From Eledone cirrhosa (lineage: Eukaryota), in NCBI GenBank assembly GCA_964016885.1, contig OZ024743.1, forward strand, positions 41,292,001 through 41,356,000: a DNA stretch of 64,000 nt, in the 5' to 3' direction. This document shows positions 3,142 to 64,000 of this stretch, in pieces. Numbering within the stretch: the stretch's first letter is position 1; every line of letters begins with the position of its first letter. The notes under the pieces were generated by a model, which had not been told where the DNA came from, ran no database searches, and saw nothing but the letters and a program-made list of their open reading frames with translations. The position numbers and the translations under genes are program-made.

Positions 3142-4751
3142 CAGTGCCCCGCAAAAGTATACAACACATTAGGAAAAATGCGGTTTTAGGTATTTTTAAT
3201 AAAGTTAGGGTAATGAAAATTTAACTACTGATAGAACATATAATGAGGCATTTAATGATACAATTATATTTTTAAAAAAATAACAAGGTAATAACTCAAG
3301 AAGAAAAATCAATATTTTTATAACACAAAAGTTTACAACACATTTATTAAATCATCTCTTAATATTTTGTAGCGTAACCTTTGTTGCTAACTACAGCCTG
3401 TAGGCATTTGGAGTAGCCTCCTACAAACTTCTTGGCTAATATTTTTCCATTCTTCACAACAAATTTTCTTTAGTTCAGGGATATTTTGGGGTTTCCTTTT
3501 TTTGAATTCTGAGTTTCAGTTCTCTCCACAAATTTTTGATCGGGTTAAGATCTGGAGACTGACATGGCCATTTTAGAACATTTGTTCCATTCGTACTTAA
3601 CCAAGATTGTGTTAGCTTTGCAGTATGCTTTGGATCGTTGTCTTGTTGAAAAAACCAAACGGGCTTTAAGCTGAGAGAATGTGCACTTTGATGTAAATTC
3701 CTTTGCAAGATACTTCTATAATAAGCGCCATCCATTCTTCCTTCCATTATTTCAATATTTCCTACACCAGTGGTACTAAAGCAACCCCAGACCATAACTG
3801 ATCCACCTCCAAATTTTACAGTTGGAATAGTATTCTTCAGCGAATATTCAGTACCTTTCTTTCTCCAGACTTTTGCCACAGCATTTCGCCAAAAAGTTCA
3901 ATTTTTGTTTCGTCTGACCAAAGTACATCTTCCCAAAATGACGCAGGTTTGATGAGATGCTCATTTGCAAAGTTTAATCGACGAAGAACGTGTTTCCTCG
4001 TAAGAAGTGGTGTGTTCCTTGGAGACTTCGAGAAGATATATCGATGTAGTGAACGACTAATTGTATCTGTGCTCACTTTTACTCCACTTCCTTCTAGGTC
4101 ATCCTAAAGATTTTAATGAGTACACCGGGGTTCGTTGCCAAGCTTTCTCGTCAATAACCGAGCTGCACGTTCCGTTATCTTTCTATCTTTCTAGGACGAC
4201 CATAACTAATTACAGGACAGATGGAATGATGAGATTTCCAGTGACGAATTATAGTACCAACTGAACTCAATGGCACATTTAACTGACAAGATATCTTTCT
4301 ATAACCAACACTATTTGTATGAAGGTCTACAATGCGTTTACGGAGGTCTTGATCAATCAGTTTATTTTTCCCCATATTGTCAATGTTTACAGGATGGTTG
4401 TCAATGTTTGCAGGACTGTTGTCAGACAAATAATGACGTAATGTTTTTAATTATCCTTAGAAGTTACCTTAAACCTAATCTAGAACATTCTACTGAATTT
4501 TAAATCTGAAAATTTAAGAATTTTCTTGAAAAAGAGCGATAAATAGAAAATGTGTTGTAAATTTTACGTTATAAAAATATTGATTTTTCTTCATGAATTA
4601 TTTCCTTGTTATTTTTTTTAAAAATATGATTGGATCATTAAATGCCTCATTATGTGTTCTATCAGTAGTTACATTTTCATTACCCTAACTTTATTAAAAA
4701 TACCTAAAACCGCATTTTTCTTAACGTGTTGTAAACTTTTGCGGGGCACTG
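3142..4751 (-). mobile_element. Tc1-like DNA transposon, IR/DR type, 1610 bp, complete but decayed
   Basis: Ends CAGTGCCCCGCAAAAGT...ACTTTTGCGGGGCACTG, flanked by TA on both sides; ~200-bp TIRs (3142-3345, 4548-4751) with the direct repeat caaaagt(a/t)tacaacacatt at outer and inner ends. Confidence 0.95.
3359..4375 (-). pseudogene. Tc1 (DD34E-type) transposase, several frameshifts
   Basis: MGKNKLIDQDLRKRIVDLH N-terminus; WSDETKIELFG, GGGSVMVWGCF, FQQDNDPKH, SPDLNPIKNLW (catalytic E replaced by K); ends KGYATKY*. Confidence 0.92.
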
Positions 4752-7183: not shown

Positions 7184-7342
7184 TAGGAACGACGGCTAAT
7201 TCTGGATTGAATTAGCCGTCGAAACGTCTTGAGCTCAGCCGTCGGGGTCTTAATTGTTCCTATTACCCACTCTACTACCATAAGTATTGAGTACTTTGGT
7301 GCGTTATGGTCCACCTCGTTCCTTACCACATTTCCTTCGTTA
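7184..7342 (+). mobile_element. Short dispersed element carrying the 3' half of an HHR (relatives at 485-535, 2691-2741, 39376-39519, 40667-40862, 43280-43298)
   Basis: Shared gaattagccgtcGAAACggcttgagctcagccGTCggggtc...ttggtgcgttatggtccacctggttccttaccacatttccttcgtta; copies lie in or beside (TA)n. Confidence 0.8.
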
Positions 7343-7361
7343 TACATATATATACATATAT

Positions 7362-7394
<33 letters not shown>

Positions 7395-7422
7395 TAAATA
7401 TAATCGATATATATATATATAT

Positions 7423-7470
<48 letters not shown>

Positions 7471-7484
7471 ACATATATATATAT

Positions 7485-7516
<32 letters not shown>

Positions 7517-7781
7517 ACGGAAAAAATGAAACGATATTTCATTTCCCACTCTTAGTACGGCTGTTACTTAAATATAAGTATGTACACGTACATACATATA
7601 TGTATACCGACGTACAGTAGTATGTATATATATATATACATACATGCACACATATATATATGCACGTATGGATTCACCGAACATTTATTATAATGCTCGG
7701 TGTGTTTGTAAACAAACATCCCGTATTAAGCCGTAGTGTCTAGCAACCACCGTTGCTCATTTGTTCAACACTGACAAAGGA

Positions 7782-7824
7782 ACGCTGTACTAGTTTCAAG
7801 CTTGTTAGCTATCGTCAGCAACGT
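7782..7824 (-). ncRNA. Type I HHR of the 422-bp monomer, left arm (also 8204-8246, 8625-8667, 9047-9089, 9469-9511)
   Basis: Minus strand acgttg-CTGACGA-t-agct-aaca-agct-t-GAAAC-ta-GTA-cagcgt. Confidence 0.85.
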
Positions 7825-10158
7825 ATACCTTCCTGCCAGATTGTTGAACGTATATACTTACCTTATGCATATTAACGGCTGAGTAGCCCAATATGCATAT
7901 CGAGTGGGTTAATCGGCCGGGTGCACCGAAAACGATAAACGGAAAAAATGAAACGATATTTCATTTCCCACTCTTAGTACGGCTGTTACTTAAATATAAG
8001 TATGTACACGTACATACATATATGTATACCGACGTACAGTAGTATGTATATATATATATACATACATGCACACATATATATATGCACGTATGGATTCACC
8101 GAACATTTATTATAATGCTCGGTGTGTTTGTAAACAAACATCCCGTATTAAGCCGTAGTGTCTAGCAACCACCGTTGCTCATTTGTTCAACACTGACAAA
8201 GGAACGCTGTACTAGTTTCAAGCTTGTTAGCTATCGTCAGCAACGTATACCTTCCTGCCAGATTGTTGAACGTATATACTTACCTTATGCATATTAACGG
8301 CTGAGTAGCCCAATATGCATATCGAGTGGGTTAATCGGCCGGGTGCACCGAAAACGATAAACGGAAAAAATGAAACGATATTTCATTTCCCACTCTTAGT
8401 ACGGCTGTTACTTAAATATAAGTATGTACACGTACATACATATATGTATACCGACGTACAGTAGTATGTATATATATATATACATACATGCACACATATA
8501 TATATGCACGTATGGATTCACCGAACATTTATTATAATGCTCGGTGTGTTTGTAAACAAACATCCCGTATTAAGCGTAGTGTCTAGCAACCACCGTTGCT
8601 CATTTGTTCAACACTGACAAAGGAACGCTGTACTAGTTTCAAGCTTGTTAGCTATCGTCAGCAACGTATACCTTCCTGCCAGATTGTTGAACGTATATAC
8701 TTACCTTATGCATATTAACGGCTGAGTAGCCCAATATGCATATCGAGTGGGTTAATCGGCCGGGTGCACCGAAAACGATAAACGGAAAAAATGAAACGAT
8801 ATTTCATTTCCCACTCTTAGTACGGCTGTTACTTAAATATAAGTATGTACACGTACATACATATATGTATACCGACGTACAGTAGTATGTATATATATAT
8901 ATACATACATGCACACATATATATATGCACGTATGGATTCACCGAACATTTATTATAATGCTCGGTGTGTTTGTAAACAAACATCCCGTATTAAGCCGTA
9001 GTGTCTAGCAACCACCGTTGCTCATTTGTTCAACACTGACAAAGGAACGCTGTACTAGTTTCAAGCTTGTTAGCTATCGTCAGCAACGTATACCTTCCTG
9101 CCAGATTGTTGAACGTATATACTTACCTTATGCATATTAACGGCTGAGTAGCCCAATATGCATATCGAGTGGGTTAATCGGCCGGGTGCACCGAAAACGA
9201 TAAACGGAAAAAATGAAACGATATTTCATTTCCCACTCTTAGTACGGCTGTTACTTAAATATAAGTATGTACACGTACATACATATATGTATACCGACGT
9301 ACAGTAGTATGTATATATATATATACATACATGCACACATATATATATGCACGTATGGATTCACCGAACATTTATTATAATGCTCGGTGTGTTTGTAAAC
9401 AAACATCCCGTATTAAGCCGTAGTGTCTAGCAACCACCGTTGCTCATTTGTTCAACACTGACAAAGGAACGCTGTACTAGTTTCAAGCTTGTTAGCTATC
9501 GTCAGCAACGTATACCTTCCTGCCAGATTGTTGAACGTATATACTTACCTTATGCATATTAACGGCTGAGTAGCCCAATATGCATATCGAGTGGGTTAAT
9601 CGGCCGGGTGCACCGAAAACGATAAACGGAAAAAATGAAACGATATTTCATTTCCCACTCTTAGTACGGCTGTTACTTAAATATAAGTATGTACACGTAC
9701 ATACATATATGTATACCGACGTACAGTAGTATGTATATATATATATACATACATGCACACATATATATATGCACGTATGGATTCACCGAACATTTATTAT
9801 AATGCTCGGTGTGTTTGTAAACAAACATCCCGTATTAAGCCGTAGTGTCTAGCCGTAGTGTCTAGCATTATAATAAATGTTCGGTGAATCCATACGTGCA
9901 TATATATATGTGTGCATGTATGTATATATATATATACATACTACTGTACGTCGGTATACATATATGTATGTACGTGTACATACTTATATTTAAGTAACAG
10001 CCGTACTAAGAGTGGGAAATGAAATATCGTTTCATTTTTTCCGTTTATCGTTTTCGGTGCACCCGGCCGATTAACCCACTCGATATGCATATTGGGCTAC
10101 TCAGCCGTTAATATGCATAAGGTAAGTATATACGTTCAACAATCTGGCAGGAAGGTAT

Positions 10159-10201
10159 ACGTTGCTGACGATAGCTAACAAGCTTGAAACTAGTACAGCG
10201 T
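10159..10201 (+). ncRNA. Type I HHR of the 422-bp monomer, right arm (also 10581-10623, 11003-11045, 11425-11467)
   Basis: acgttg-CTGACGA-t-agct-aaca-agct-t-GAAAC-ta-GTA-cagcgt; stem I extends through ctggcagg/tttgtcag and gttcaaca/tgttgaac; palindromic ACTAGT at stem III. Confidence 0.85.
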
Positions 10202-11677
10202 TCCTTTGTCAGTGTTGAACAAATGAGCAACGGTGGTTGCTAGACACTACGGCTTAATACGGGATGTTTGTTTACAAACACACCGAGCATTATAATAAAT
10301 GTTCGGTGAATCCATACGTGCATATATATATGTGTGCATGTATGTATATATATATATACATACTACTGTACGTCGGTATACATATATGTATGTACGTGTA
10401 CATACTTATATTTAAGTAACAGCCGTACTAAGAGTGGGAAATGAAATATCGTTTCATTTTTTCCGTTTATCGTTTTCGGTGCACCCGGCCGATTAACCCA
10501 CTCGATATGCATATTGGGCTACTCAGCCGTTAATATGCATAAGGTAAGTATATACGTTCAACAATCTGGCAGGAAGGTATACGTTGCTGACGATAGCTAA
10601 CAAGCTTGAAACTAGTACAGCGTTCCTTTGTCAGTGTTGAACAAATGAGCAACGGTGGTTGCTAGACACTACGGCTTAATACGGGATGTTTGTTTACAAA
10701 CACACCGAGCATTATAATAAATGTTCGGTGAATCCATACGTGCATATATATATGTGTGCATGTATGTATATATATATATACATACTACTGTACGTCGGTA
10801 TACATATATGTATGTACGTGTACATACTTATATTTAAGTAACAGCCGTACTAAGAGTGGGAAATGAAATATCGTTTCATTTTTTCCGTTTATCGTTTTCG
10901 GTGCACCCGGCCGATTAACCCACTCGATATGCATATTGGGCTACTCAGCCGTTAATATGCATAAGGTAAGTATATACGTTCAACAATCTGGCAGGAAGGT
11001 ATACGTTGCTGACGATAGCTAACAAGCTTGAAACTAGTACAGCGTTCCTTTGTCAGTGTTGAACAAATGAGCAACGGTGGTTGCTAGACACTACGGCTTA
11101 ATACGGGATGTTTGTTTACAAACACACCGAGCATTATAATAAATGTTCGGTGAATCCATACGTGCATATATATATGTGTGCATGTATGTATATATATATA
11201 TACATACTACTGTACGTCGGTATACATATATGTATGTACGTGTACATACTTATATTTAAGTAACAGCCGTACTAAGAGTGGGAAATGAAATATCGTTTCA
11301 TTTTTTCCGTTTATCGTTTTCGGTGCACCCGGCCGATTAACCCACTCGATATGCATATTGGGCTACTCAGCCGTTAATATGCATAAGGTAAGTATATACG
11401 TTCAACAATCTGGCAGGAAGGTATACGTTGCTGACGATAGCTAACAAGCTTGAAACTAGTACAGCGTTCCTTTGTCAGTGTTGAACAAATGAGCAACGGT
11501 GGTTGCTAGACACTACGGCTTAATACGGGATGTTTGTTTACAAACACACCGAGCATTATAATAAATGTTCGGTGAATCCATACGTGCATATATATATGTG
11601 TGCATGTATGTATATATATATATACATACTACTGTACGTCGGTATACATATATGTATGTACGTGTACATACTTATAT

Positions 11678-13168
<1,491 letters not shown>

Positions 13169-13182
13169 TAACTTTGAAAAAC

Positions 13183-15976
13183 TCAGGATTTGGGCACCAT
13201 GGCCCATTGGAGAAGAGAATTACTGTTTGCGGAGACATATCCTGGTGTGGGTGGTTTGTCCGCGATTACTTGGAGGAATTTGTCCAAAGACTTCTTGAAT
13301 TTTGTGTGGACAATTTCTGTTTTGACGTGTCCTTGTGTGATGTTGAAGAGAGTAGGCCCAATTGAGGTGAAATAATTGTGCCGTATTGTTGTTATGTGTT
13401 GCGATTTAGATTTTTGTTTGGGACGAATAGCACGGGGCCCAAGCCTTGGCTGTATTTTGAAGGTGATGCCAACATCATTTGGGCAGTGCTGATGAAACAT
13501 TTTCCACATCATGCAGATAATATAACGCTCACGGCGACGTTGGAGTGAGTAAAGTTTCAGCTTTTTAGTCGACCCCAGTAGTCAAGGTCTGAAATGCCAT
13601 CTATCTTTTTCGTGATTTCCCTTTGGGGAGCTTCAAGTTTCATGATACTTTGTTTCGTGTGGGGAGACCACAGTGGACAACAGTATTCAAGGTCTGGTCG
13701 GGCAAAGGTAGAGAAGAGAAGGATAATGGTGTGGGAATCTCTCGACTGGAAGGTTCTGGGGATCCAGGAACACATTCTACGGGCCATGTCAACTTTGATG
13801 CTTATATGCGTGGCCCAGCTTATGTTGCTGTCCACGGATACTCCCAAGTCTCTGATGTTGTTAGATGCCACGAGAGTTTCACCGGAGGGAAGGGAGTACG
13901 GGAGTTTCAGAGCATCCTCTTTTCCAAAGTGGATCAGTTCGAATTTGTCTTCGTTCAGTAACATGTTCTTTTCCGCCCATTGGGTAACAGCCAGTAGGTC
14001 TGACTGAAGTCTTATCCGGTCATCCACGCCATTGATGACCTTTTTGAGCTTGGAATCATCAGCTAAAATTCTAATGTTGCTGTGTTTGATGATGTCAGTG
14101 ATGTCATTAATATAGATGATGAAGAGAAGTGGGCCCAACACAGTGCCTTGTGGGACACCACTACTGACTTTGGCTGGGCTGGATTTGACTCCTTCGACTA
14201 CAACATGTTGGGTTTTGTTTGACAGGAAGCTCTTGATCCACTGCAGCAGCTTTCCAGTGACACCAATATTGGACAGCTTTCTCAGTAGAATGTTATGATC
14301 AACCCTGTCAAAGGCCTTGCTGAAATCAAGGTAGATAACATCAGTGTTGGAACCCTCTCCAAGACTCTCAAAATGTCATCAAAGTGATGCAGTAGCTGCG
14401 TCAGGCAATCCCTTCAATTACGGAATCCATGCTGGTTGGAGTTCAGCATATTGTTACTCTCAAGGAAGTGAGTCATTCGCGATCTCACCACTCTCTCAAA
14501 TACCTTAATGATATGAGAGGTGAGTGAGATTGGACGGTAATTCACGGCATGGGATTTGTTTCCTTTTTTGAAAACTGGGACAACGGACTGGGCTAGAATG
14601 TTTTCTGGCACATATCCAGCATCCAGTGAGTTCCGCCACAGATTGGCAAGAGGAGATGCAAGTTGGTGTTGACACGCCTTCAAGACACAAGCAGGAAACC
14701 TATAGGGATCTACTGCTGAATTATGCTTGATTTCCTTTATTGCCGCTAAGACATCAGGGGCGCCAAACGTTATGTCCGATAAGGTGTAATGGGGAGTAAC
14801 ATCGCCGATACAGCCCAGATCGGCCATATCAGGATTGCTGAAACAGAGCAGTATTGTTTCTGCAGTATCTCACCCATGGCTTATGTGTTGCTGCTGACAG
14901 TATTTCAGCTTGTTGATTTTTTTGTTAGTTCTCTTAATTTTCCTGATGAGCGTTTTTCTATTTCTAGGGATTCTGCTCTTAGATTTGTTTCTAGTTCTTA
15001 ATGGGGTGTGTTTTGCACATATGTTTGTAACAGTGTCCACAAATGTCTGCCAGGACTTTTTGATGTTAGTGGGTGTGTGAGTGTGCGTGAAGGACCAGTC
15101 GACATCTGCAAGATCATGACTGATCGCTTCCCAGTTTGCATTGTAGAAATCCATAGCGTCAAACGGAGGGACAGGAGAGATGACATTGGGTTTGTATAGT
15201 GGACGGTGGAATATCAGATCACAGAGAACCATGTCATGATCAGAGAGTAGAGTTTTCTCCACTGCAATATTGTGGATATTGTCAGTGTGTTTGCTGAAAA
15301 TTAAGTTTAGGACGTTTTTGTGGCACCTCGTTGGTTCGAGCACCAGTTGGGACAGGAAGAATTCATCCATGAAGTCAAGAAGCGATTCCACTGCTTCCCT
15401 GTCAGAGGTTGATGCAGAAGAACCTGGTGGCTGGCTGTTTGTGGACCAGTCAAGTCCGGGGAGGTTGAAGTCCCCCATCATTAAGATGTTGTCAGGGTGA
15501 CAATCTTGGATGAAACACTTTATGCTGTTGAGGCATTCCTTGAAGCATGGTAGAGGCGTTTGGGGTGGCCTATAGAGCCCAACTACTATTAGGTTGTTGG
15601 TTTGACTGAATACAGTGACTGCTTCGCAGTATCCATTAGTAAATATGTTCATAGCCTCTGTTGAGAAAGAATTATGGACATAAATGGCAGTCCCACCCTT
15701 TCTTCTGCCAGCGCGATCAGCACGGATGGCTTTGAAATTTTTCACTTTCACCTCGGCTTCCAAGTCGAGGTTACTGAGATGGGTTTCAGTGCGGACGTTG
15801 AAAGGGATGTGGTTTGGATGGACATCAACCCAGTCCTCCAGGAATTTGATATTCCATTTTTGAGTATTGGTGGAAGGGCTGATGCCTTGAGCGTTAAGCA
15901 TAAATGTTGAGGCGAGAGTGGATGGTTTTAATTGTTTTGGTGTGTTGTTAATTTGTTTGTTTGTTAATGGCAGCAA
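13183..15976 (-). pseudogene. LINE ORF2: APE endonuclease + reverse transcriptase, frameshifted
   Basis: LNAQG, TETHL, GGTAIYV, YRPP, MGDFN, SDH; YRPISLTS, QHGFR, GVPQGTVLGPLLF, LADD, DLGV, LEYCCPLWSP. Confidence 0.93.
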
Positions 15977-16189
15977 TGGGAGGTTGTGCAGTGGGGTGAT
16001 AGTGGAGGGTGGTGCTGGGTTATAGCTCGAATGTTTTTTTCCAGTTCTTTTGCCAAATTCATTATGGCGAAAAAAGAGGAAGAAGTTTCCTGTTTAGGAG
16101 TCTGTTGGTGACTGTGGTAGTGGTTATTTTTATGTAGGTTATGGTTTTTGTTTTTGCTTTTATTTTTATTTTTATTTTATTTTGTCCGA

Positions 16190-17472: not shown

Positions 17473-18431
<959 letters not shown>

Positions 18432-18579
18432 TTATACTTTGGGAGGGTCATGTTGCCAATAAGAAACACACGCACCAGTGTTTCACTTCAATTTATTAAA
18501 ATAAATTTATAATAAATTTATAAATTTATAAATTTCTGGTTGGTTGGTTGGTTCCACAACCAGATAGTTGTTTATATAT

Positions 18580-18624
18580 AGTCATAGTTCTTTCGTCACA
18601 CACTCTGTGACCTCTTCAGTGACT
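18580..18624 (-). ncRNA. Minimal type I HHR in the Penelope pLTR (mutated copy 19051-19095 +, deleted copy 23013-23045 +)
   Basis: agtca-CTGAAGA-g-gtcaca-gagtg-tgtgac-GAAA-gaac-TA-tgact; one extra G before stem II. Confidence 0.7.
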
Positions 18625-19351
18625 GGGGATTCCTTTCTTTGTTTCTCTGCCTCTCCTTTGTTCTGTCCTATGCCATTTTGCTTCTGTGTGTTTGTTGTGT
18701 GCTCAGTCTGCGCATGCGCTACATGCGGGTGTCTGTGTGTGTTTATGTTCATTTATTTATTTGTTTATTTACATGTTACTGGTTGGTTGTTTGTTCTATG
18801 TGTATGTGTGTTTTCATGTGTGGAACAGCAACATCACAACTTACAATTAAGGACAAAATGAAAACACACACACACATAGAACAAACAACCAACCAGTAAC
18901 ATGTAAATAAACAAATAAATAAATGAACATAAACACACACAGACACCCGGATGTGGCGCATGCGCAGACTGAGCACACAACACACACACAGAATCAAAAT
19001 GGCGTAGGACAGAACAAAGGAGAGGCACAGAAAAAAAGAAAGGAATCCCCAGTCACTGAAGAGGTCACAGAGTGTGTGACAAAAGAACTATGACTATATA
19101 TAAACAACTATCTGGTTGTGGAAGCAACCAACCAACCAGAAATTTATAAATTTATAAATTTATTATAAATTTATTATAATAAATTGAAGTGAAATAAACT
19201 GGTGCGTGTGTTTCTTATTGGCAACATGACCCTCCCAAAGTATAACAATATCGGTTTCAACACACGATTTCAGATAAATTATCTTGCTAAACAAATTCAG
19301 AAATGAAATATCGTAAGCCCTAGCCAGGCTAACAAGATACTGAAAACCACC

Positions 19352-22300
19352 ATGTTCTGTTGTCTACGAAAAACCATAACATCTCGACAACTACACTTCA
19401 TAAAAGAATGTGCCTCATCCCGAGTTTACACCAACACCATCAACACCGACGTTAGAAGATTACAACTCACCAAAAAACGAGCAGATAGGCTAAAACGAAC
19501 ATTAATTCTAAACATAAAAAAGAAGATCTATAGAGAATTAAGTCATCAAGAAAAACATAAGCGTAACCTAATACAAGAAATAGCTAGGATCACCACACCA
19601 AGAGAGAAACTAATATTTATAAGCCTTATACACCCTGACGAACTGTACATTACTCAAGAATGTGATAAGCACTTTAACAAGAAACTAAAGTGGCTTAAGC
19701 AGATAAAGCTAAATCAGGATACTATAGAGAATACCAATAGATATCCCGACAAAATTGACGGTATAAATATGGCCGACACCTCATTAACAGAAGAGTTCAA
19801 CAACAACAACAACACAAATATATACGGTAACACAAGAATAGATGACGATGAGATGTATGTGTTATGTTTACCCCCGAAATTTGTGACATTCAAGAAGGTA
19901 AATATGATTAGTTGTCTATCAGAAATAGAAAAAATCATTTACAAAAGTACGCGGGGGTCTCAAAAACAAAAACAAAAACAAGAGCAACAATATACGCACA
20001 CACATATACAACCCACATCCCAACAACAACAGACACACAGACACAAACAACAATAACAACAACACACACACCAACAACAATAACAATAACAATATACCCA
20101 GAAACAACAACAGACACGCAGACACAAACAACAATAACAACACACACAACAATAATAACACATACGGAGACAACAACAACACACATCAACAACAGCACAC
20201 ATCAATAACAACAACACACACACATTCAATGCCTCTCACCACCACCACAATCTTAACAAACACACAGACACACAAAATAGGGTAGATAACAACAATGAGC
20301 CAGTGGAAAGAGACAGGAGTAATTGTGAGAGACATAGAAACAACCATTACGCTGTTGGTGGAAATAGAAATAGAAACAACACAACTAACAATAACAATAG
20401 CACTAGTACACATAAAGCAGCAGCCTGGAACTCTACGTTTTATAATCCCTCCGATAAATCATTCGACCTGTGACGAGTCCACCCCACGCGACTTTAGCAT
20501 TTAACAAACGCACGCAATTGCCGTCGCAGGTCGATGAACAAACAGAAGCACAATTTAGTATAGCTAGATCCGAACTTAGAAATATTATAGAACAGTATAG
20601 CAAGAAGCATAATAGAATGGAGGCCCAGCAACTGGGAGAAAAATCTGCAAATGGCTTGCGTAAGCTCATGCAGCGCTCATGTAATAGAGAGATAGCATGC
20701 TTTCCAACAGACAAGTCTGGCAGAATGTCGGTTGACAGCCTGCCAAACTACATCCAGGCAATGCAACCCCACATCACTAACACAAGAGAGGTAACACCAC
20801 AGGAGCATGAGGATAGAGAAAAAGCCCTCAATGCCCATATGGTGATGTGGAAGAATATAATGCAGCCCAACAAAAGGACTGCCAACAACTTCCAGGCCTG
20901 GAACAATGACGTGCCGGCGTTGTATGGGCTTCGAAAATACCATAAAACGGGCTGTGACCCTGTCGCGGGTCCACCAACACGGCCAGTCTGTGGAGCTAAC
21001 ATTGCTAGTAACTACAGACTGTCTTACTTCCTCTCCCTGATCATACGCCCCATCATTGAAATGTCCCCAGATGTATGTGGCAGAACGGAGGACCTCCTCA
21101 GCAGAATCGGCGTGAGTAACCGATCTGGGGACCTAATAAACTGCATAATAGGCAGTATGGATGTTGTGTCCCTGTATCCATCTATTGACGTGGATTTTGC
21201 TGTGGAGAAATGCGTAGAAATGATCAGTGAGAGCAAGGTTGAGTTCCGTGGGATTGATACCAGTGAGCTGGGACTCCTACTTAAACTTACCTATTGTAAT
21301 AATTACCTAGACACATATGACCTTAGCAACCAGTGCCCTACAAGACCAGCAAGAGGCAGACCGCCTACCATTACCTCAATGGCCAAGAAAACCAACACAT
21401 ATAGATAGAACGGGTGGATCAGAGCCATACGGACACCCGAAAACCACGATGAACTGAAGAAAATGATTGCACATGCGGTAGGGGCCAGCATAAAATTAAC
21501 CCTTAAGGAACATATGTTCAAATTTAATGGAAAAACATATGCCCAAGAGGAAGGAGCAGCCATTGGTGTTAGCATTGCAGGCGACATAGCTAACTTATTC
21601 ATGGTATGGTGGGGCAGTAGACTTAAACTTAAACTTAAAGAACAATTAGAAGACCCCTTAACCCTCATAATGTACTCCCGCTACGTAGATGATATAAACA
21701 TCGTAGTTAAGACACCCCCACTAGAGAACAGTCAGGAACTAGAGAAAAACACAATGGAAAGCATACAGCAAATAGCAAACTCCATCCACCAGAGCATTAG
21801 AGTTACTATAGACTACCCAAGTAAACACCCCAACCATCGATTACCTGTACTAGACACAGAGCTCTGGTTAGATACCATTAACAACAAAAAACAAATCCTC
21901 CATTCCCATTATGCCAAACCCATGACTTCCAAACATCTGATCCACCGAAACTCGGCCGTTTCGGACCATACCAAAATCAACATACTGATTGCGGATTTGG
22001 TACGGGTGATGAGAAATGTGTCCCGCATGTGCAACACCGAAGAACTAGAGAGACACATACAACACTTCATCCACCGTATGCAGTTCTCTGGCTACAATCA
22101 GAGAGATAAAATCAGAGTGTATAGAGGAGCCAGAACCAAATGGGAAAAAATGGTAAATAATGACATAAATGGGACCTGCCCCTTGTATAGGAGCAAATTT
22201 TGGAATAGAATAGAAAGAACTAGGAACAAGGCTAATAGAATAAACTCATGGTATGATAGCAATAAATACCAGAGTGTAATGTTCATCGATACAACCCCTA

Positions 22301-22790
22301 GAGGTGAATTAGCTTACAAATTTTGAAGGGCCCTAAATAAACATAAACTCAATATTAAGATAGTAGAAAGACCAGGTACCTCCGTAAAAACACTTATTAG
22401 CAAGACATACCCTTTTCAAAGACCCTCATATATAGATAAGTAATGTATAACCTGTAAAATAAGCCCCCATATTAACTGTAAAACTAGAAATGTAGTGTAT
22501 AGCATAAGATGTACTGAAGGACAATGTAGAGACAAAAATATAGTGTACATAGGTGAGACAGCTCGTAGTGTAGGGGAAAGGATAAATGAACACTGGCGAG
22601 ACCTTCAAGATAATAAAGAATCATCTGTACTCTAGCAACATGCTAAAATAGAACACAGGGGTAAATTAGAAAACATAGAGATAAAAATTGAAATCTACAC
22701 ACAGAAAAGACGCAATGTTTAGACAAATTACAGAGGCAATAAACATAAAAGAATTACGACCAAAATTAAATAGAAAATATGAGTGGAACA
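19352..22790 (+). pseudogene. Penelope RT + GIY-YIG endonuclease, with stops and frameshifts
   Basis: PTDKSGR, PTRPV, SMDVVSLYPSI, GAAIG, YSRYVDD, LPVLD; then CITC, NCKTRNVVYSIRC, YIGETARSVGERINEH, RQITEA, PKLNRKYEW; stops at 21406 and 22324 and further on. Confidence 0.92.
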
Positions 22791-23319
22791 CAACATCACA
22801 ACTTACAATTAAGGACAAAATGAAAACACACACACACATAGAACAAACAACCAACCAGTAACATGTAAATAAACAAATAAATAAATGAACATAAACACAC
22901 ACAGACACCCGGATGTGGCGCATGCGCAGACTGAGCACACAACACACACACAGAAGCAAAATGGCGTAGGACAGAACAAAGGAGAGGCACAGAAACACAG
23001 AAAGCAATCCCCAGTCACAGAGTGTGTGACAAAAGAACTATGACTATATATAAACAACTATCTGGTTGTGGAAGCAACCAGCCAACCAGAAATTTATAAA
23101 TTTATAAATTTATTATAATAAATTGAAGTGAAAGCAACTGGTGCGTATGTTTCTTATTGGCAACATGACACTCCCAAAGTATAACAATATCGGTTTCAAC
23201 ACACGATTTTAGATAAAGAATTTTGCTAAACAAATTCAGAAACGAAATATATATATATGAATACATATATATAAGAAACGGTATATATTTAATCTAATAA
23301 TTCTAAAGACATGATTTAT

Positions 23320-29650: not shown

Positions 29651-30327
29651 ATGGCTGATGGGTCTCCAACAAGCAAAAAAAAAAAAAAGATGGCGGAGAA
29701 CCTGAAGAACCATCGGTTTCTGAGGACCCTGGCACAGATAGAGAGAAATAGAAAAGAAATTGTGAAGGCGTATGTCCTCATAGCGCCACATATGGAGATG
29801 CTAAGCCATGTCCTCAGGGAGGAGAAAACCGAAGAGAGGGATGAGGAGCAAGAGAGGGAAAGGGAAAGGAAAAAGAAAAGGAGGAGCGCACAAGCACGGA
29901 CCTGAAAGAAAATGATATACCCTCCGCCACATGCAGGGAGGGCAGGCCGGGCAACCAATAAGCAAAGGGCAAAGGTGAAAAGCGAAATCACCTTCCGAAG
30001 GAGAACCAAGCGCAGAGGGACCAGTGGACAACTGTTCAAAGGAAGAACAGAAAGCACCGAGACACTAGGAGCAAAAAAACCCAAGTAATGTGCAAGTTTT
30101 TCAAGAACGGGACATGCTGACATGGAGAGACAGGGATGGGATGCAGATTCGCCCACCCTAGGTCTCAAACGAACTATGCCCATCATACTCGCGCAACATG
30201 CCCTAGCCAAAGCCGAAATAAGCCGCTCCAGAAGTATGCTGATGTCGCGCGTGCCGCACCAACAAGGAGAAGGCACGCACATGCCGACGAGATACAGATG
30301 GCAGCAGCAGATCAGAAAAATGTTTAA
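29651..30327 (+). pseudogene. LINE ORF1 remnant: charged coiled-coil-like region and CCCH zinc finger
   Basis: [22 protein letters not shown]; [21 protein letters not shown] after a frameshift. Confidence 0.6.
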
Positions 30328-30431
30328 ATGATGGCAGAGAAGATTGTGGGACAGCTGACCTGGCTGCATCTTCTCCAGAGCCAGAGTCATCCACACCAGC
30401 ACTCGAGACCACCACAGTTAAGGGACCCAGA

Positions 30432-55724: not shown

Positions 55725-55842
55725 AGTGAGTGTGTTCTGTTATTAATTCTGGCAATATTACACAAATATGACCCTACCCAAGTATAACAATATTTGTTTC
55801 GACACACGATTTCATATCAAAAACCTCGCAAAACTAATTCAT
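55725..55842 (+). mobile_element. Penelope pLTR 3' tail fragment (another at ~40405-40463)
   Basis: atgaccctacccaagtataacaatatttgtttcgacacacgatttca matches atgaccctcccaaagtataacaatatcggtttcaacacacgatttca at ~19226-19272. Confidence 0.75.
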
Positions 55843-59407: not shown

Positions 59408-62288
59408 TTACGGGGCCAATGCACCCTTCGACCTGAACGGGTCGTATTTCTGTATGTTGGTGGGGAGGGGGGACGAAGAAACAAGTGTATGTGGCGAAGA
59501 AAAAGAAGGGGGCATTTGTGGTTCAAGTGTCACTGTGTCAGTGTCCAGATTGGCTCGTTTGAGGCGATCAACGGAAATAGTTTCCCTGGACCCCCTAATG
59601 TCCACCCTGAAATGTTTCTCTGTACGAGCAAGCACACGATAGGGTCCAGAGTACGGCCGTGTGAGAGGGGCCTCACAGCGTCGTCTCTAAGGAACACGTG
59701 TCCACAAGGCAATATCCCTTGGGACGGCAGTTTTTACAGTTTGCTTCCTAGTGTCCATCGGTGGTAAATCCTGGAAGTAAGAATGAAGCCGGGACACGTA
59801 GGAAGCGGGATCCTGCGAAGCAAGATCAACAGTAGCAAGCATTTGCCCCGGTAACGCAAGAGGAGTACCATAAATCAATTCGGCCGGGGAGAACCCAAGG
59901 TCCACCTTTATTGTCGACCGAATCCCTAACAACACAATAGATAGGTACTCAATCCAACGTGAAGAGTCCATTGAAGCCCTTAAAGAGGCTTTAAGCTGTC
60001 TGTGAAATCTTTCCACCATTCCGTTTGATGCTGGATGATATGCCGTGGTTCTTATGCGAGTAGCGCCGATAATTTGTGTTAATTCACGGAAGAGGTTCGA
60101 TTCAATTGACGACCGCGGTTCGTTGTTATTGTGGTTGGTACTCCAAAACGAGCGATCCATGCAGATACGAGAGTACACGCTGTCGTTTCAGCAGTGATAT
60201 CTGTCATAGGGATGGCTTCAGGCCAACGCGAACAACGGTCAACGATCGTCAAAATATAGGAATAACCATGACTAATCGGCCACGGGCCGACGATGTTCAC
60301 ATGATTGTGACGAAATCTGGCATCAGGACAGGTGGAAGTTCCGAGAGGAGTTTTAACGTACTTATGATCTTTTGACTTTTGGCAAGCGACACAGAAACGG
60401 CACCAAGCAGCAATGTCACGTCTCATATCAGGCCAGAAATATCTGGCTGTTATGAGTTTTACCGAGGCTGTAGCTCCTGGGTGAGAAATGCCATGCAAAG
60501 CGAGAAATACAGTTCGTCGATGACCAACTGGGACGAGAGGTCGTGGTGAGTCCAACGAGATATCACAAAGTATCTGTCCGTCAGCGGTTGATAAAGGAAG
60601 GTATTTCATATTGCAGTTAATGAACTCCGGCGATGTGCAATCCAATGATTCAAGCGAGGGTTGGTCAATGGCCATTTGACGCAAATCTATATCGTTAGAC
60701 GACGAGATCGAAGCAATCGGGAGGCGAGACAAGGCGTCTGCCGCAGTGTTCAAAGTACCCGGAATATGTTGAATATCATTGGTGTATTGGGAAACAAAAT
60801 CCAGATGTCTAGTTTCCCTAGGCGAATATTTGTCAGATTTTGATCTTAAAGCGAAAATCAACGGTTTGTGATCTGTGAAAATAGTGAACGCTCACCGTTC
60901 AGAACATGGGAGAAATGTTTCACATATAAATAAATTGCTAAAAGCTCACGCCCGAAAGTACTATAACGATTTTCGGCAGGCTTTAGCTTTCTCGAAAAAA
61001 ATTCCAGTGGTTATTGTAAACCATCGCACTTCTGTTGCAAGACTGCGCCCACGGCGGTATCCGACGCATCAACACAGAGCGATAGCTCGGCGTTGGGCAC
61101 TGGGTGGGCGAGCAAAGACGCGCTCGCTAACGCCTTTTTCACTTTTTTAAAATCCTCAAGCTGCGTTTTATTTATGGAAATGTCCATATTCTTACGCCGG
61201 CAATTTAAAAAAATTTCTGTCAACGAGAACAGCAAGTTGGAACAATTAGGTACAAATCGCCTATAAAAATTGACAAGGCTTAAGAATTGACGCAATTGTC
61301 GCAGTGAACTTGGCGGAGGCAAATCCGATACTGCCTTAACCTTCTCAGGAAGAGGTCGAATACCATCGGCGTCAATCAGATGGCCTAAAAATGTTAGTGA
61401 AGTCGAGCCGAAAACACACTTGGAAGCAATAATACGAACACTGTATTTCTGTAAACGGCGAAATAGGGTATCTAGATGTTTGGAATGTTGTTCAGGAGAA
61501 GAACTAGCAATCAGTACATCATCGATATAAGTGTAGACAAAATCGAGCCCACGAGTGACATCATCCATGAATCGTTGGAAGGTACTTGCAGCATTTCTAA
61601 GTCCGAAAGGCATAGTGAGGAACTCGAAAGATCCAAATGGAGTGGCAATAGAAGTCTTCGGAATATCCTCCTTGTTAACCGGAATCTGATTATAAGCACG
61701 AATCAAATCGAGCTTAGAAAAGATTGTGCAACCTTGTAATGAAGAAGCGAAATCCTGCAAATGCGGGATTGGATAACGGTCAGGCACAGTAATCGCGTTT
61801 AAGCGTCGGTAGTCACCCGTCGGCCTCCAATCACCAGAAGATTTAAGTACCATATGTAGAGGCGATGCCCAAGGACTTGTGGAACGCCGAATTATTCCTA
61901 ATTCCAGCATGTGGTCGAATTCAGTCCGTGCAGCTTTCAACTTCTCTGCAGACAATCTTCGAGGACGTGAGAAAACAGGTGGACATGTAGTGGATATAAT
62001 GTGTTCAATCACATGATCCGGACTAGCAATTCGTAATCTTCCTTGCGTTAGCTGTGGGAATGATTTTAACAAACTGTGATACTGGTTGCCCACTTCAGAC
62101 AAGAAAAAAGTAGGGCGCACTGTGGCGATCTCCGGCTTTGTACCCTCGAACGATAGGCCTGTTTTAGCATCAAAGAGTCGTTGTCTGCGGATGTCAATCG
62201 ACAAAGAAAAATGGTGGAGAAAATCCGCTCCCAAAATGGCGTATGGCAAGTCGGCGATAGTAAACTTCCACTTCAATTCACGACGCAA
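59408..62288 (-). pseudogene. Gypsy pol (RT, RNase H, integrase), frameshifted
   Basis: [57 protein letters not shown]...[38 protein letters not shown]. Confidence 0.95.
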
Positions 62289-62315
62289 ATTTTTTAACAG
62301 AAGAGGAAGCGAAAT

Positions 62316-63509
62316 TTACCCGTACGTTCGAATGGCCGTGTGGTTGACTGCTCGTAAATTTATATTTGATTCAGATGGGGTTTTTTTGAGATAACTGACT
62401 GGCCAAATACTCAGCGACGCGCCAGTATCGACAAGGAAAAATTTTTTCGACCGCAGGTCGTATACGAAAAGATGGCGGTTCGGTCGATTTTCCCAGAGTT
62501 CACTAGCCGCCCCTAGTGGCTCTGCTTTGCGTTTTCCGAATGGCTTGTAATTACAGGGCGTGCGACAACTTTGTGCCCTACTGCCGAAGTTAGTATGATA
62601 CCAACAAAACCAAGAATTATTGTTGTCTGAGTTGTAGTGCTGGCGATGAATAGAAGACGGCGGCGAACGGTACTCGTAGCGGTTTCGAGGAATAGCAGAC
62701 GAAGGCAAACGGTACTCGTAGCGGTTTCGAGGAATAGCAGACGGAGGCGAACGGTACTCGTAGCGGTTTCGAGGAATAGCAGACGGAGGCGAACGGTACT
62801 CGTAGCGGTTTCGAGGAATAGCAGACGGAGGCAAACGGTACTCGTAGCGGTTTCGAGGAATAGCAAACGGAGGCGAACGGTACCTCAAACGTTGAGAAGG
62901 CTCTCTGTGTTGTACGGTCAAATCCTCCACTTTTTGGGTAAGCGCTTCGATCATCTCCAACAGTTTGCTGTCGGCCACAGAAGAATTGCGTGGGAGAACA
63001 TGAGAAGAATCCACACAAGGATTATGCCGACTGCTGTTAGAGTCCACCTCTAGTATTCTATCCGCGGATGCGGCAAGTTGATCTAACGATTCCCTCTCCA
63101 AATTATTGACCAAGACCATCTGCGCACTTGGCGGTAAACGAGAGAAAAATAGTTGTTTGAGGAATGGGGAGTCCATCCCCTGGGAGTCGCTCAATTCCGA
63201 CAGATGTCGCAAATAGGAGCTTGGCGTCCTGTCACCCATTTGGGCATCATCTAACAATTCCCGAAAACGACTTTCCGCTGACTTGGTATTCCTCCGAATA
63301 ATTTCCCCTTTCAACGAGCCATAAGTAACGTCTGCGGCTAAATTGGTTACCACATCCTTCACAGAATATGCCAACGACACAGGCAAGCCACTAACTAGTA
63401 CCTTCAGTTTATGCTGTTCTTTGGTTTTGGTTAAATCAAAATAGCATTCAAGCTGCAAAAACAATAATTTGATGTCGCCTGCGAAGGACGGCAAATGATG
63501 TGGATTCAT
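62316..63509 (-). CDS. Gypsy gag + aspartic protease N-half (frameshifted from pol)
   Basis: 397-aa ORF: GDRTPS, CHCC knuckle, FLVDTGASLS. Confidence 0.88.
   Translation of the reverse strand: MNPHHLPSFAGDIKLLFLQLECYFDLTKTKEQHKLKVLVSGLPVSLAYSVKDVVTNLAADVTYGSLKGEIIRRNTKSAESRFRELLDDAQMGDRTPSSYLRHLSELSDSQGMDSPFLKQLFFSRLPPSAQMVLVNNLERESLDQLAASADRILEVDSNSSRHNPCVDSSHVLPRNSSVADSKLLEMIEALTQKVEDLTVQHREPSQRLRYRSPPFAIPRNRYEYRLPPSAIPRNRYEYRSPPSAIPRNRYEYRSPPSAIPRNRYEYRLPSSAIPRNRYEYRSPPSSIHRQHYNSDNNNSWFCWYHTNFGSRAQSCRTPCNYKPFGKRKAEPLGAASELWENRPNRHLFVYDLRSKKFFLVDTGASLSIWPVSYLKKTPSESNINLRAVNHTAIRTYG
62656..62885 (-). repeat. 42-bp coding tandem repeat in gag
   Basis: About five copies encoding R(S/L)PPSAIPRNRYEY. 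Confidence 0.9.
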
Positions 63510-64000
63510 GATTGCCGAAGAATCTCCCAGGACGAACTATGTCTTTGAAGCAGCCACTCGACCAAAAGGCCACACTGGAATCCAAAATCTTATTCACGCG
63601 AATTCAACTGAAATTCTTTTTGAAAATTCTCGCCGGCCAAAATAAAATTTGCATAATAAAAAAAATTATTTTCCATGAAAATTATTTGGTAAGAATATCC
63701 CAAGATGGCTGATTGAAAAATGTGTTTGTGATGAAGAAGCCGTCATGTGGCACGATGCCGCCAATCAGATGGCTGGGATTGAAGAAGACAAGCTGTACGC
63801 GGGAAAACAAAATTTTTGAGTCTCCATTTTGTTATTTTAACAGAAGGTTGAAAGCAAAATTTTATATCCAGAGAAATCCTTTTTTTTTTTTCTTTTTTAA
63901 AGAGAGAAGTTGATGCAAAAGGAAACATATTGTTCACTCAAAGACAAGATACCAAACAACAACGGGCCGGAATTCCATATATATATGTGCAGCGTCGCAC

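Follow-up and report, generated by a model that had tools for sequence, protein, structure and literature searches.

The window analysed here is a 64,000-nt stretch of the Eledone cirrhosa genome (contig OZ024743.1, positions 41,292,001 to 41,356,000, forward strand). At 7513-11677 it holds a head-to-head array of a 422-nt hammerhead unit, i.e., a retrozyme, whose mode of insertion is the subject of this study. Tandem Repeats Finder reports the 422-nt period for 7513-9853 (5.5 copies at 99%) and for 9864-11677 (4.3 copies at 100%). In exact comparison, the right arm is a perfect repeat from 9864 to 11677, and the left arm is perfect from 9853 to 7513 but for a single 1-nt deletion at ~8575. 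An initial annotation of the sequence had described about 5.5 and 4.3 near-identical inverted units, which both comparisons bear out.

In the following, unit positions are numbered from the base after the predicted hammerhead cleavage site, such that 10196 is position 1 and one monomer spans 10196-10617 of the plus strand from cleavage site to cleavage site (422 nt, about 37-39% GC). The left arm (7513-9853, minus strand) comprises 5.55 units; its inner 5' start is unit position 44 and its outer 3' end is position 275. The right arm (9864-11677, plus strand) holds 4.3 units, starts at position 91 and ends at position 216. That is, the 5' ends of both arms meet at the centre of the array and the 3' ends point outward, each into a (TA)n target microsatellite (7341-7512 on the left, 11678-13170 on the right) of the same TATAC polarity. 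We refer to the end at 216 as A and to that at 275 as B, and to the respective arms as A arm (right) and B arm (left). The central junction (9854-9863) is a 10-nt templated insert repeating the end of the left arm, with a 13-nt tandem duplication at 9838-9866; three shared nucleotides (AGC) join it to the right arm.

Both array ends pass straight into (TA)n without LTRs (long terminal repeats; no search was aimed at a primer binding site or polypurine tract). The unit has no open reading frame (ORF) and thus no coding capacity for a reverse transcriptase (RT) or GIY-YIG nuclease: read as a circle, its longest stop-free frame is 53 amino acids (aa), in agreement with the initial annotation. The predicted monomer fold has z scores of -7.9 and -8.6 against dinucleotide shuffles, and ~71% of the 422 nt are predicted to pair when folded as a circle. 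All four hairpins named by the initial annotation are present in this fold.

Hammerhead motif and retrozyme family

The array carries nine complete CUGACGA...GAAACUAGUA motifs, four on the plus and five on the minus strand, each on the sense strand of its arm. The type I hammerhead at 10134-10220 (plus strand) has a long, interrupted stem I (10134-10164 with 10196-10220) and the core CUGACGA at 10165-10171. Further cores lie at 10587-10617, 11009-11039 and 11431-11461 on the plus strand and at 9505-9475, 9083-9053, 8661-8631, 8240-8210 and 7818-7788 on the minus strand. Cleavage on the plus strand is predicted after 10195, 10617, 11039 and 11461. The core is canonical (CUGANGA, GAAA, GUA), stem II has 4 bp closed by U-U (U10.1-U11.1) and is followed by GAAA, and stem III has 1-2 bp with the self-complementary ACUAGU. 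The U-U and ACUAGU noted by the initial annotation are present, and its assignment to type I with a dimer-type stem III is supported. Short stems III with a palindromic motif are described as active as dimers in tandem repeats and quiet in monomeric circles (PMC4209133), and U-U at the stem II base as a natural variant that retains more activity than other mismatches (PMC3088659).

A check against hammerhead covariance models, as suggested by the initial annotation, did not recover the motif. Rfam yields no match at gathering score in the whole window. For 9990-10500 and E<=10, there are 44 weak matches, none to a hammerhead or other ribozyme family; they are mostly microRNA and small nucleolar RNA models placed on the TA hairpin of the unit and were rejected as compositional. 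The type I assignment therefore rests on core motif and conservation. Genome-wide, the core pattern occurs 28,594 times versus 20 times for a reversed control, so that the motif is not a chance match.

We scored stem pairing on 20 hand-picked hammerhead variants out of 81 distinct ones. Here, 98.8% of the stem cells are paired, and one stem I pair varies between G-U (11), U-G (6) and A-U (3). When four units of the second subfamily (see below) are compared with the window unit, core and stems differ at 2/62 positions, which are the two sides of this variable pair, while 55-64/278 of the other non-TA positions differ (Fisher p 1e-4 to 6e-4), noting that the core of the compared units was fixed by the search pattern. 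The same test gives p 0.16 and 0.03 for two intermediate units. Short-read contigs of run X3, which were not selected by the core pattern and may stem from the source sample, vary at N7, loop II, the variable stem I pair and bulges, and at 0 of 14 core bases. The ribozyme thus appears to be under selection and is probably active. Against this stand the missing Rfam match, the replacement of G-C by U10.1-U11.1, the fact that among these related sequences only the one stem I pair changes on both sides, and the cleavage of just 1/9 predicted Xenopus retrozyme dimers reported by Li et al. (10.64898/2026.07.22.740005).

A DNA search of the 3.0-Gb genome returned 377 candidate regions, of which 40 were scored, and identified identical units on several contigs. 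Contigs C13 and C15 carry 100% identical units, which supports the recent activity proposed by the initial annotation. By unit length, the family splits into two subfamilies (420-430 nt and 466-538 nt), the sister subfamily being 83-85% identical. Given a 422-nt tandem monomer with a hammerhead per unit, no ORF, low GC and a large dispersed multi-copy family, as found by the genome-wide search that had been called for, the window array is a young member of a large, recently active non-LTR retrozyme family. The label of a circular RNA replicon is not supported in the viroid sense: the opposite strand of the unit is without a hammerhead core, and there is no sign of RNA-to-RNA copying.

Some further observations concern family copies elsewhere. 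Short-read runs X6, X7 and X1 yield very few contigs (5, 4 and 2, respectively), from which we draw no host-range conclusion; one X6 piece is almost identical to the window, where carry-over is indistinguishable from presence in another species. At locus L070, two head-to-head insertions each occur twice within 8 kb, i.e., a local duplication. The flanks of L047, L035 and L097 hold a further repeated element that starts beside TA runs and interrupts retrozyme arms.

Two fixed outer ends

In the first unit of the right arm, the two end sites delimit a 59-nt 'tail' (9990-10048, plus strand). Site A (after 9989) is located in the loop of a UACUUA/UAAGUA hairpin that is kept in both subfamilies, and site B (after 10048) at the 3' foot of a AAAUGAAA/UUUCAUUU hairpin. 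The sister subfamily uses the homologous two sites.

We compiled an end-blind set of 18 loci that were chosen by internal sequence only (17 fetched loci and the window). It contains 13 head-to-head pairs of type A/B and none of type A/A or B/B; 2 of the remaining loci are cut by N gaps and 3 are single-armed or unclear. The B end is found at 269 and 274 rather than 275 in two of the 13 pairs. In addition, we studied anchored sets of 66 stretches at B ends (68 ends, from the listed part of contig C1) and 20 stretches at A ends. The anchored sets were selected for AT after the end; (TA)n or AT-rich targets are observed in the end-blind set, too. Opposite the 68 B ends, there are 31 A arms, one 7-nt A arm and one B-like arm (L154). 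Another 19 B ends adjoin (TA)n only, where an A arm of few bases would look like target, and 16 are without scored partner, one of them with a partner running past the stretch. The 20 A ends show 9 scored B partners and 3 more at L072, L075 and L086, 5 inverted partners that end elsewhere, one end with TA only, one without partner, and one false anchor (L088), which was rejected because it reflects a point change inside the arm.

The head-to-head form with fixed outer ends at 216 and 275 is family-wide and constitutes the 'tail' signature known from Penelope elements. It is the most informative feature of the array and was missed by the initial annotation. The palindromic form follows a rule of the family and does not reflect an artefact.

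The rival reading is an artefact of amplification or assembly due to fold-back reads, to which AT-rich DNA with long palindromes readily gives rise. For the window, the central junction is taken from the assembly, and 9820-9945 was skipped as repeat in the comparison with read contigs. Dozens of loci (70-100% identity) show the same architecture and differ in their junctions, the (TA)n flanks are not mirrored, and the contigs of run X3 show several opposite-strand joints as well as, precisely at position 275, a loose end that leads into (AT)n. An artefact thus has a negligible probability.

Genome-wide, the exact end patterns occur 473 times for B and 1,526 times for A. The excess of A ends was considered as a trace of a hidden autonomous partner. 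This was rejected, since the B pattern includes a base that varies between subfamilies and accounts for the excess, and since no ORF-bearing continuation of the unit was found at 20 A-anchored loci.

Arm lengths, junctions and template

Next, we compared the two arms of each insertion. Of 39 anchored pairs, 21 have a longer A arm and 18 a longer B arm (29 vs. 27 with 17 hand-added pairs). Their inner breakpoints are within 10 nt of each other in 2 pairs (1.9 expected), and the respective distances are uniformly distributed (Kolmogorov-Smirnov p 0.69; 0.54 with the added pairs). The lengths of paired arms correlate (Spearman 0.41, p 0.01), which fits simultaneous synthesis, although age could contribute. 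The median anchored arm has 1.05 units; 43/81 arms exceed one unit, 15 exceed two, and 13/39 anchored pairs consist of two arms of more than one unit each. Some arms reach 16-20 identical units, in a set biased towards length. Among the inner junctions, 23/41 overlap by 1-4 nt (a raw count without chance control), while the others show short templated inserts.

The arms also share sequence variants. Private variants are found in every unit of both arms at L031 (A191G), L087 (two substitutions), L035 and L036 (both TA-length), and both arms belong to one haplotype in 13/14 loci, compared to a permutation mean of 3.8. Shared haplotypes would likewise be expected if priming occurred only once and the second arm were a fold-back copy of the first cDNA, i.e., self-priming on the antisense template. 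This is how Arkhipova et al. 2013 (PMC3846280) explained the inversion of head-to-head Penelope-like elements (PLEs), and a few junctions of the retrozyme are indeed true palindromes at hairpins (L043, L047, L086, L195). A copied arm, however, cannot outgrow its template, yet either arm may be the longer one; coinciding breakpoints are as rare as expected by chance, and each arm has its own fixed end site and its own (TA)n junction. We consider the fold-back reading largely refuted and very improbable. The near-strict A/B pairing together with independent arm lengths and shared haplotypes argues for two primings per insertion.

We favour, with a probability of roughly two in three, that a Penelope-like RT/GIY-YIG protein moves the element, a non-autonomous non-LTR retrozyme, via twin priming on an RNA circle. 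PLE-type two-site priming as such we regard as very probable; given such priming, a circular template would be probable. Following known retrozymes, transcripts of the array would cut themselves at the hammerheads, with a stem III of 1-2 bp only as tandem dimers, and a host ligase would circularise the 422-nt monomer, whose single hammerhead should then be nearly inactive. Judging from the insertion ends, the PLE protein, probably as a dimer, would then nick both strands of a (TA)n microsatellite. The genomic pattern suggests that each 3'-OH primes cDNA synthesis at its own fixed internal site, 216 or 275, with 2-5 nt of AT microhomology. Both RTs would travel round the presumed ring-shaped template over anything from part of a unit to ~20 units, with no relation between the places where they stop. 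The cDNAs, whose 3' ends have the same polarity, would be joined via a short templated insert or a few bases in common. Fill-in by repair would then give a head-to-head array that is 'tailed' at one end and 'tailless' at the other, as observed.

To assess the template, we counted how arms behave at the predicted cleavage site. Over 145 arms, 274/293 arrivals pass the site and 175/180 crossings are exact. Stops after arrival are not enriched: one is within 3 nt (2.5 expected) and 19 are within 50 nt (18.8 expected). Breakpoints at first seemed to accumulate just past the site, an effect that disappeared once exposure was counted. Since the crossings are seamless, the cut linear monomer is not the template. 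For the rolling-circle reverse transcription of a 422-nt circle proposed by the initial annotation, the seamless template is borne out, and the circle itself is what we infer: conserved ribozyme, seamless template and monomer bottleneck together point to a re-ligated circle.

A linear multimer would also yield seamless crossings. PLE twin priming could thus have used a long uncut transcript of a master array, with the hammerhead serving another step and no circle being copied. In vitro, uncut RNA is the main substrate of the Poseidon protein and hammerhead cleavage is dispensable (PMC11167929), and the mosaic arrays at L108, L092 and L039 fit a heterogeneous linear template. On the other hand, linear copying only shortens arrays, yet arms of 16-20 units exist and the median arm has about one unit. 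New variants that are fixed in all units of both arms require a monomer bottleneck, and the ribozyme is conserved across subfamilies though cutting destroys a linear template. Partly cut multimers should result in an excess of arms starting at the cleavage site, which is not observed, and the unit-specific variants of L108 and L039 do not recur in the other arm at the same distance from its 3' end. We thus consider a linear template unlikely.

Even less probable is that short PLE-type insertions of little over one unit were later lengthened in DNA by unequal exchange or slippage. Local amplification was proposed for retrozyme arrays by Li et al. (10.64898/2026.07.22.740005), and two loci fit it, namely L086, where two decayed units with stepwise differences alternate with period 2, and L039 with a variant block in one arm. 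However, arm length does not rise with age (length vs. identity: Spearman +0.21, p 0.08), and the longest arms sit in the youngest loci. The above-mentioned pairs with both arms beyond one unit and the window array, with one difference in 10 units, are also difficult to explain this way, and an arm of just one unit, if it crosses the cleavage site, already calls for a template that is circular or multimeric.

Returning to twin priming on a circle, several observations weigh against it. An inverted arm was not scored for 35/68 B ends, and since the flanks of the B-anchored loci are (TA)n on both sides, a target-site duplication, which in non-LTR retrozymes exceeds 4 bp when there is one, is unreadable. 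At L086, two aged units separated by ~13 differences alternate and variants are stepwise; the arms of L039 differ in haplotype, with a variant in only 13 units of one arm; and the arrays of L108 and L092 are mosaic. As these four loci are not clonal, DNA-level amplification, conversion or template switching also occurs at some loci, and such amplification or template switching adds to array length. Finally, hammerhead cleavage, expression and circularity of the retrozyme RNA are predictions from DNA sequence.

Individual arrays show further peculiarities. At L086:250-4562, there are nine units of two alternating aged haplotypes, with a stem II change in every second hammerhead. The alternation may result from DNA-level duplication of a dimer or from copying of a dimeric circle, where the stepwise differences favour the former. 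Both L039:4709-8501 and L151 show arms of unlike haplotype; a C-to-T change at hammerhead position 7 is limited to one arm, where the 13 units closest to the 3' end carry it. Besides, another repeated non-coding element in (TA)n is found in the window at 7185-7340 and in the flanks of L095, L098 and L079. Its centre is palindromic, and it contains GAAACG, as is typical for minimal PLE hammerheads. At L095 and L163, this element is fused to the 5' end of a retrozyme arm, which suggests template switches between families.

Candidate helper and known systems

The window holds an autonomous PLE as a separate insertion at 18430-23250 (plus strand). It encodes an RT with YVDD, a Cys-rich linker and, C-terminally, a GIY-YIG-type nuclease, and this copy is interrupted by stops. 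A first look at its family gives 26,102 candidates; top copies are 96-99% identical, and some have open frames of >1,200 aa. Among named relatives, the Octopus vulgaris protein comes closest (68%), which fits the cephalopod host supposed by the initial annotation. Pfam reports a weak RVT_1 match in one fragment and no match in the full ORF, such that the PLE assignment rests on motifs and architecture. Linker and CCHH motif resemble those of the Neptune/Nematis clades, an affiliation that is not established. Besides an inverted pseudo-LTR (pLTR), this PLE has a hammerhead-like motif at 19056-19096 (CUGAAGA ... GAAAGAACUA).

The insertion ends of this PLE follow the same rule as those of the retrozyme. 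The inverted arm ends at A' (window-equivalent 19247-19251) and the direct arm at B' (19311), both in (TA)n. In the head-to-head insertions of this PLE, there are two end sites 60 nt apart, located just inside the ORF start, and 21/22 pairs are A/B with a single A/A pair. Retrozyme and PLE agree in target, tail length and recent activity, which makes the latter a candidate helper, not a proven one. What speaks against this role is that no homology between the retrozyme and the pLTR was found beyond a 10-15-nt motif in different register. A 15-nt match between retrozyme tail and window PLE was rejected as homology, since it drops to ~10 nt for other PLE copies and its register differs from site B. 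Likewise, no obvious structure common to retrozyme and PLE was seen in the folded tail regions.

The helper role is further tempered by the presence of at least one more PLE family. This second PLE-related family (window 55765-55841; L094, L110, L080, L040) contains part of the tail of the window PLE and ends at another B site. A longer copy at L040 has a protein of ~63% identity; no homology of its pLTR to the retrozyme was seen.

Endonuclease-bearing PLEs are known for an inverted, 5'-truncated copy and a one-sided 'tail' (PMC3846280; PMC8557442). Frangieh 2024 (PMC11167929) identified the tail as the stretch between two internal RT start sites and found that the protein cut and extended both strands. 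Given the shared end rule, this published architecture and a tail that equals the stretch between the RT starts, we conclude that the retrozyme works like a PLE passenger. Its insertions resemble those of endonuclease-bearing PLEs in the head-to-head arms, the tail at one end, the two internal RT starts, the (TA)n targeting and the microhomology at the inner junction. They differ in that the element is non-coding, that both arms are multimers of up to ~20 units, and that the tail has 59 nt instead of 30-40 bp. Furthermore, A and B are paired almost one to one in the retrozyme, whereas the in-vitro work (PMC11167929) showed no strand difference in start site.

Non-LTR retrozymes were defined by Cervera and de la Pena 2020 (PMC7229834), who reported circles in coral, mussel and axolotl and named PLEs as candidates for their mobilisation. 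Li, Clavereau and Pollet 2026 (10.64898/2026.07.22.740005) added PLE co-occurrence and pLTR similarity. Elsewhere, PLE mobilisation is thus proposed from these two features, while in the present family it is read from the insertion ends. Metazoan non-LTR retrozymes are described as tandem copies: the word 'inverted' does not occur in PMC7229834, and Li et al. (10.64898/2026.07.22.740005) mention neither inverted arms nor tails from abstract to discussion. The present family differs from them in that no pLTR homology was found and by the U-U at the stem II base. The 422-nt unit lies within the published monomer range of about 150-450 bp; units of the sister subfamily have 466-538 nt. The covered parts of PMC8490949, PMC8969392, PMC11722881 and PMC13282606 hold nothing on inverted retrozyme arrays. 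In the searched literature, with supplements and subscription papers outside the search, we found no head-to-head retrozyme arrays with paired tail ends and no cephalopod retrozyme.

The non-autonomous Chlamys elements, e.g., MRC1 (PMC8557442), are similar in that they depend on PLEs, are non-coding and show head-to-tail insertions of several copies. At the 3' end, they are like their autonomous partner, and their clade is without canonical hammerheads, whereas the present family has a hammerhead and no such resemblance to its helper candidate.

With the A/B pairs, the retrozyme invites comparison with a further mechanism. In LINE-1 twin priming, the two target strands prime cDNAs on one RNA, and joining by microhomology leaves an inversion. 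There, the first site is the poly(A) end and the second is variable; in the retrozyme, both sites are fixed, internal and 59 nt apart.

A more far-reaching version of the favoured reading, which we put forward tentatively and at somewhat below even odds, is that one PLE dimer acts on one 422-nt circle. Its two RT subunits would be placed on two fixed sites at a distance of 59 nt, with either end of a staggered (TA)n break serving one of them as primer, and would chase each other round up to the joining of the cDNA ends. Such asymmetric twin priming might be the general integration mechanism of PLEs and explain tails, inverted pLTRs and partial tandems, with the retrozyme recruiting the PLE protein by structural mimicry in place of sequence homology.

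Almost all two-armed copies examined bear the PLE end signature. Both the mover of animal retrozymes and the circle as template become testable with one small RNA. The origin of PLE inverted arms and one-sided tails was called unresolved by Craig et al. (PMC8557442); pairing, arm lengths and haplotypes favour two primings over a fold-back here. With a short non-coding unit, thousands of datable copies and an abundant candidate helper with ORFs, the family provides a ready in-vitro substrate. If true, an RT that primes from both break ends on circular RNA would be of interest for RNA-templated insertion tools. More speculatively, read-through of head-to-head arrays should give long double-stranded RNA, by which silencing or editing might come about.

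The window contains further mobile elements. Two LINE-like elements with endonuclease and RT frames are located at 13557-16093 (minus strand) and 30243-33287 (plus strand), the second with an 840-aa open frame; by motif, we take both to be CR1/L2-like. Remains of a Gypsy-like LTR retrotransposon (gag, RT and integrase frames) are found at 59687-63536 (minus strand), with a 42-bp tandem repeat at 62644-62883 in gag. The fragment at 3475-3897 (minus strand) is, by motif, presumably part of a Tc1/mariner-like transposase.

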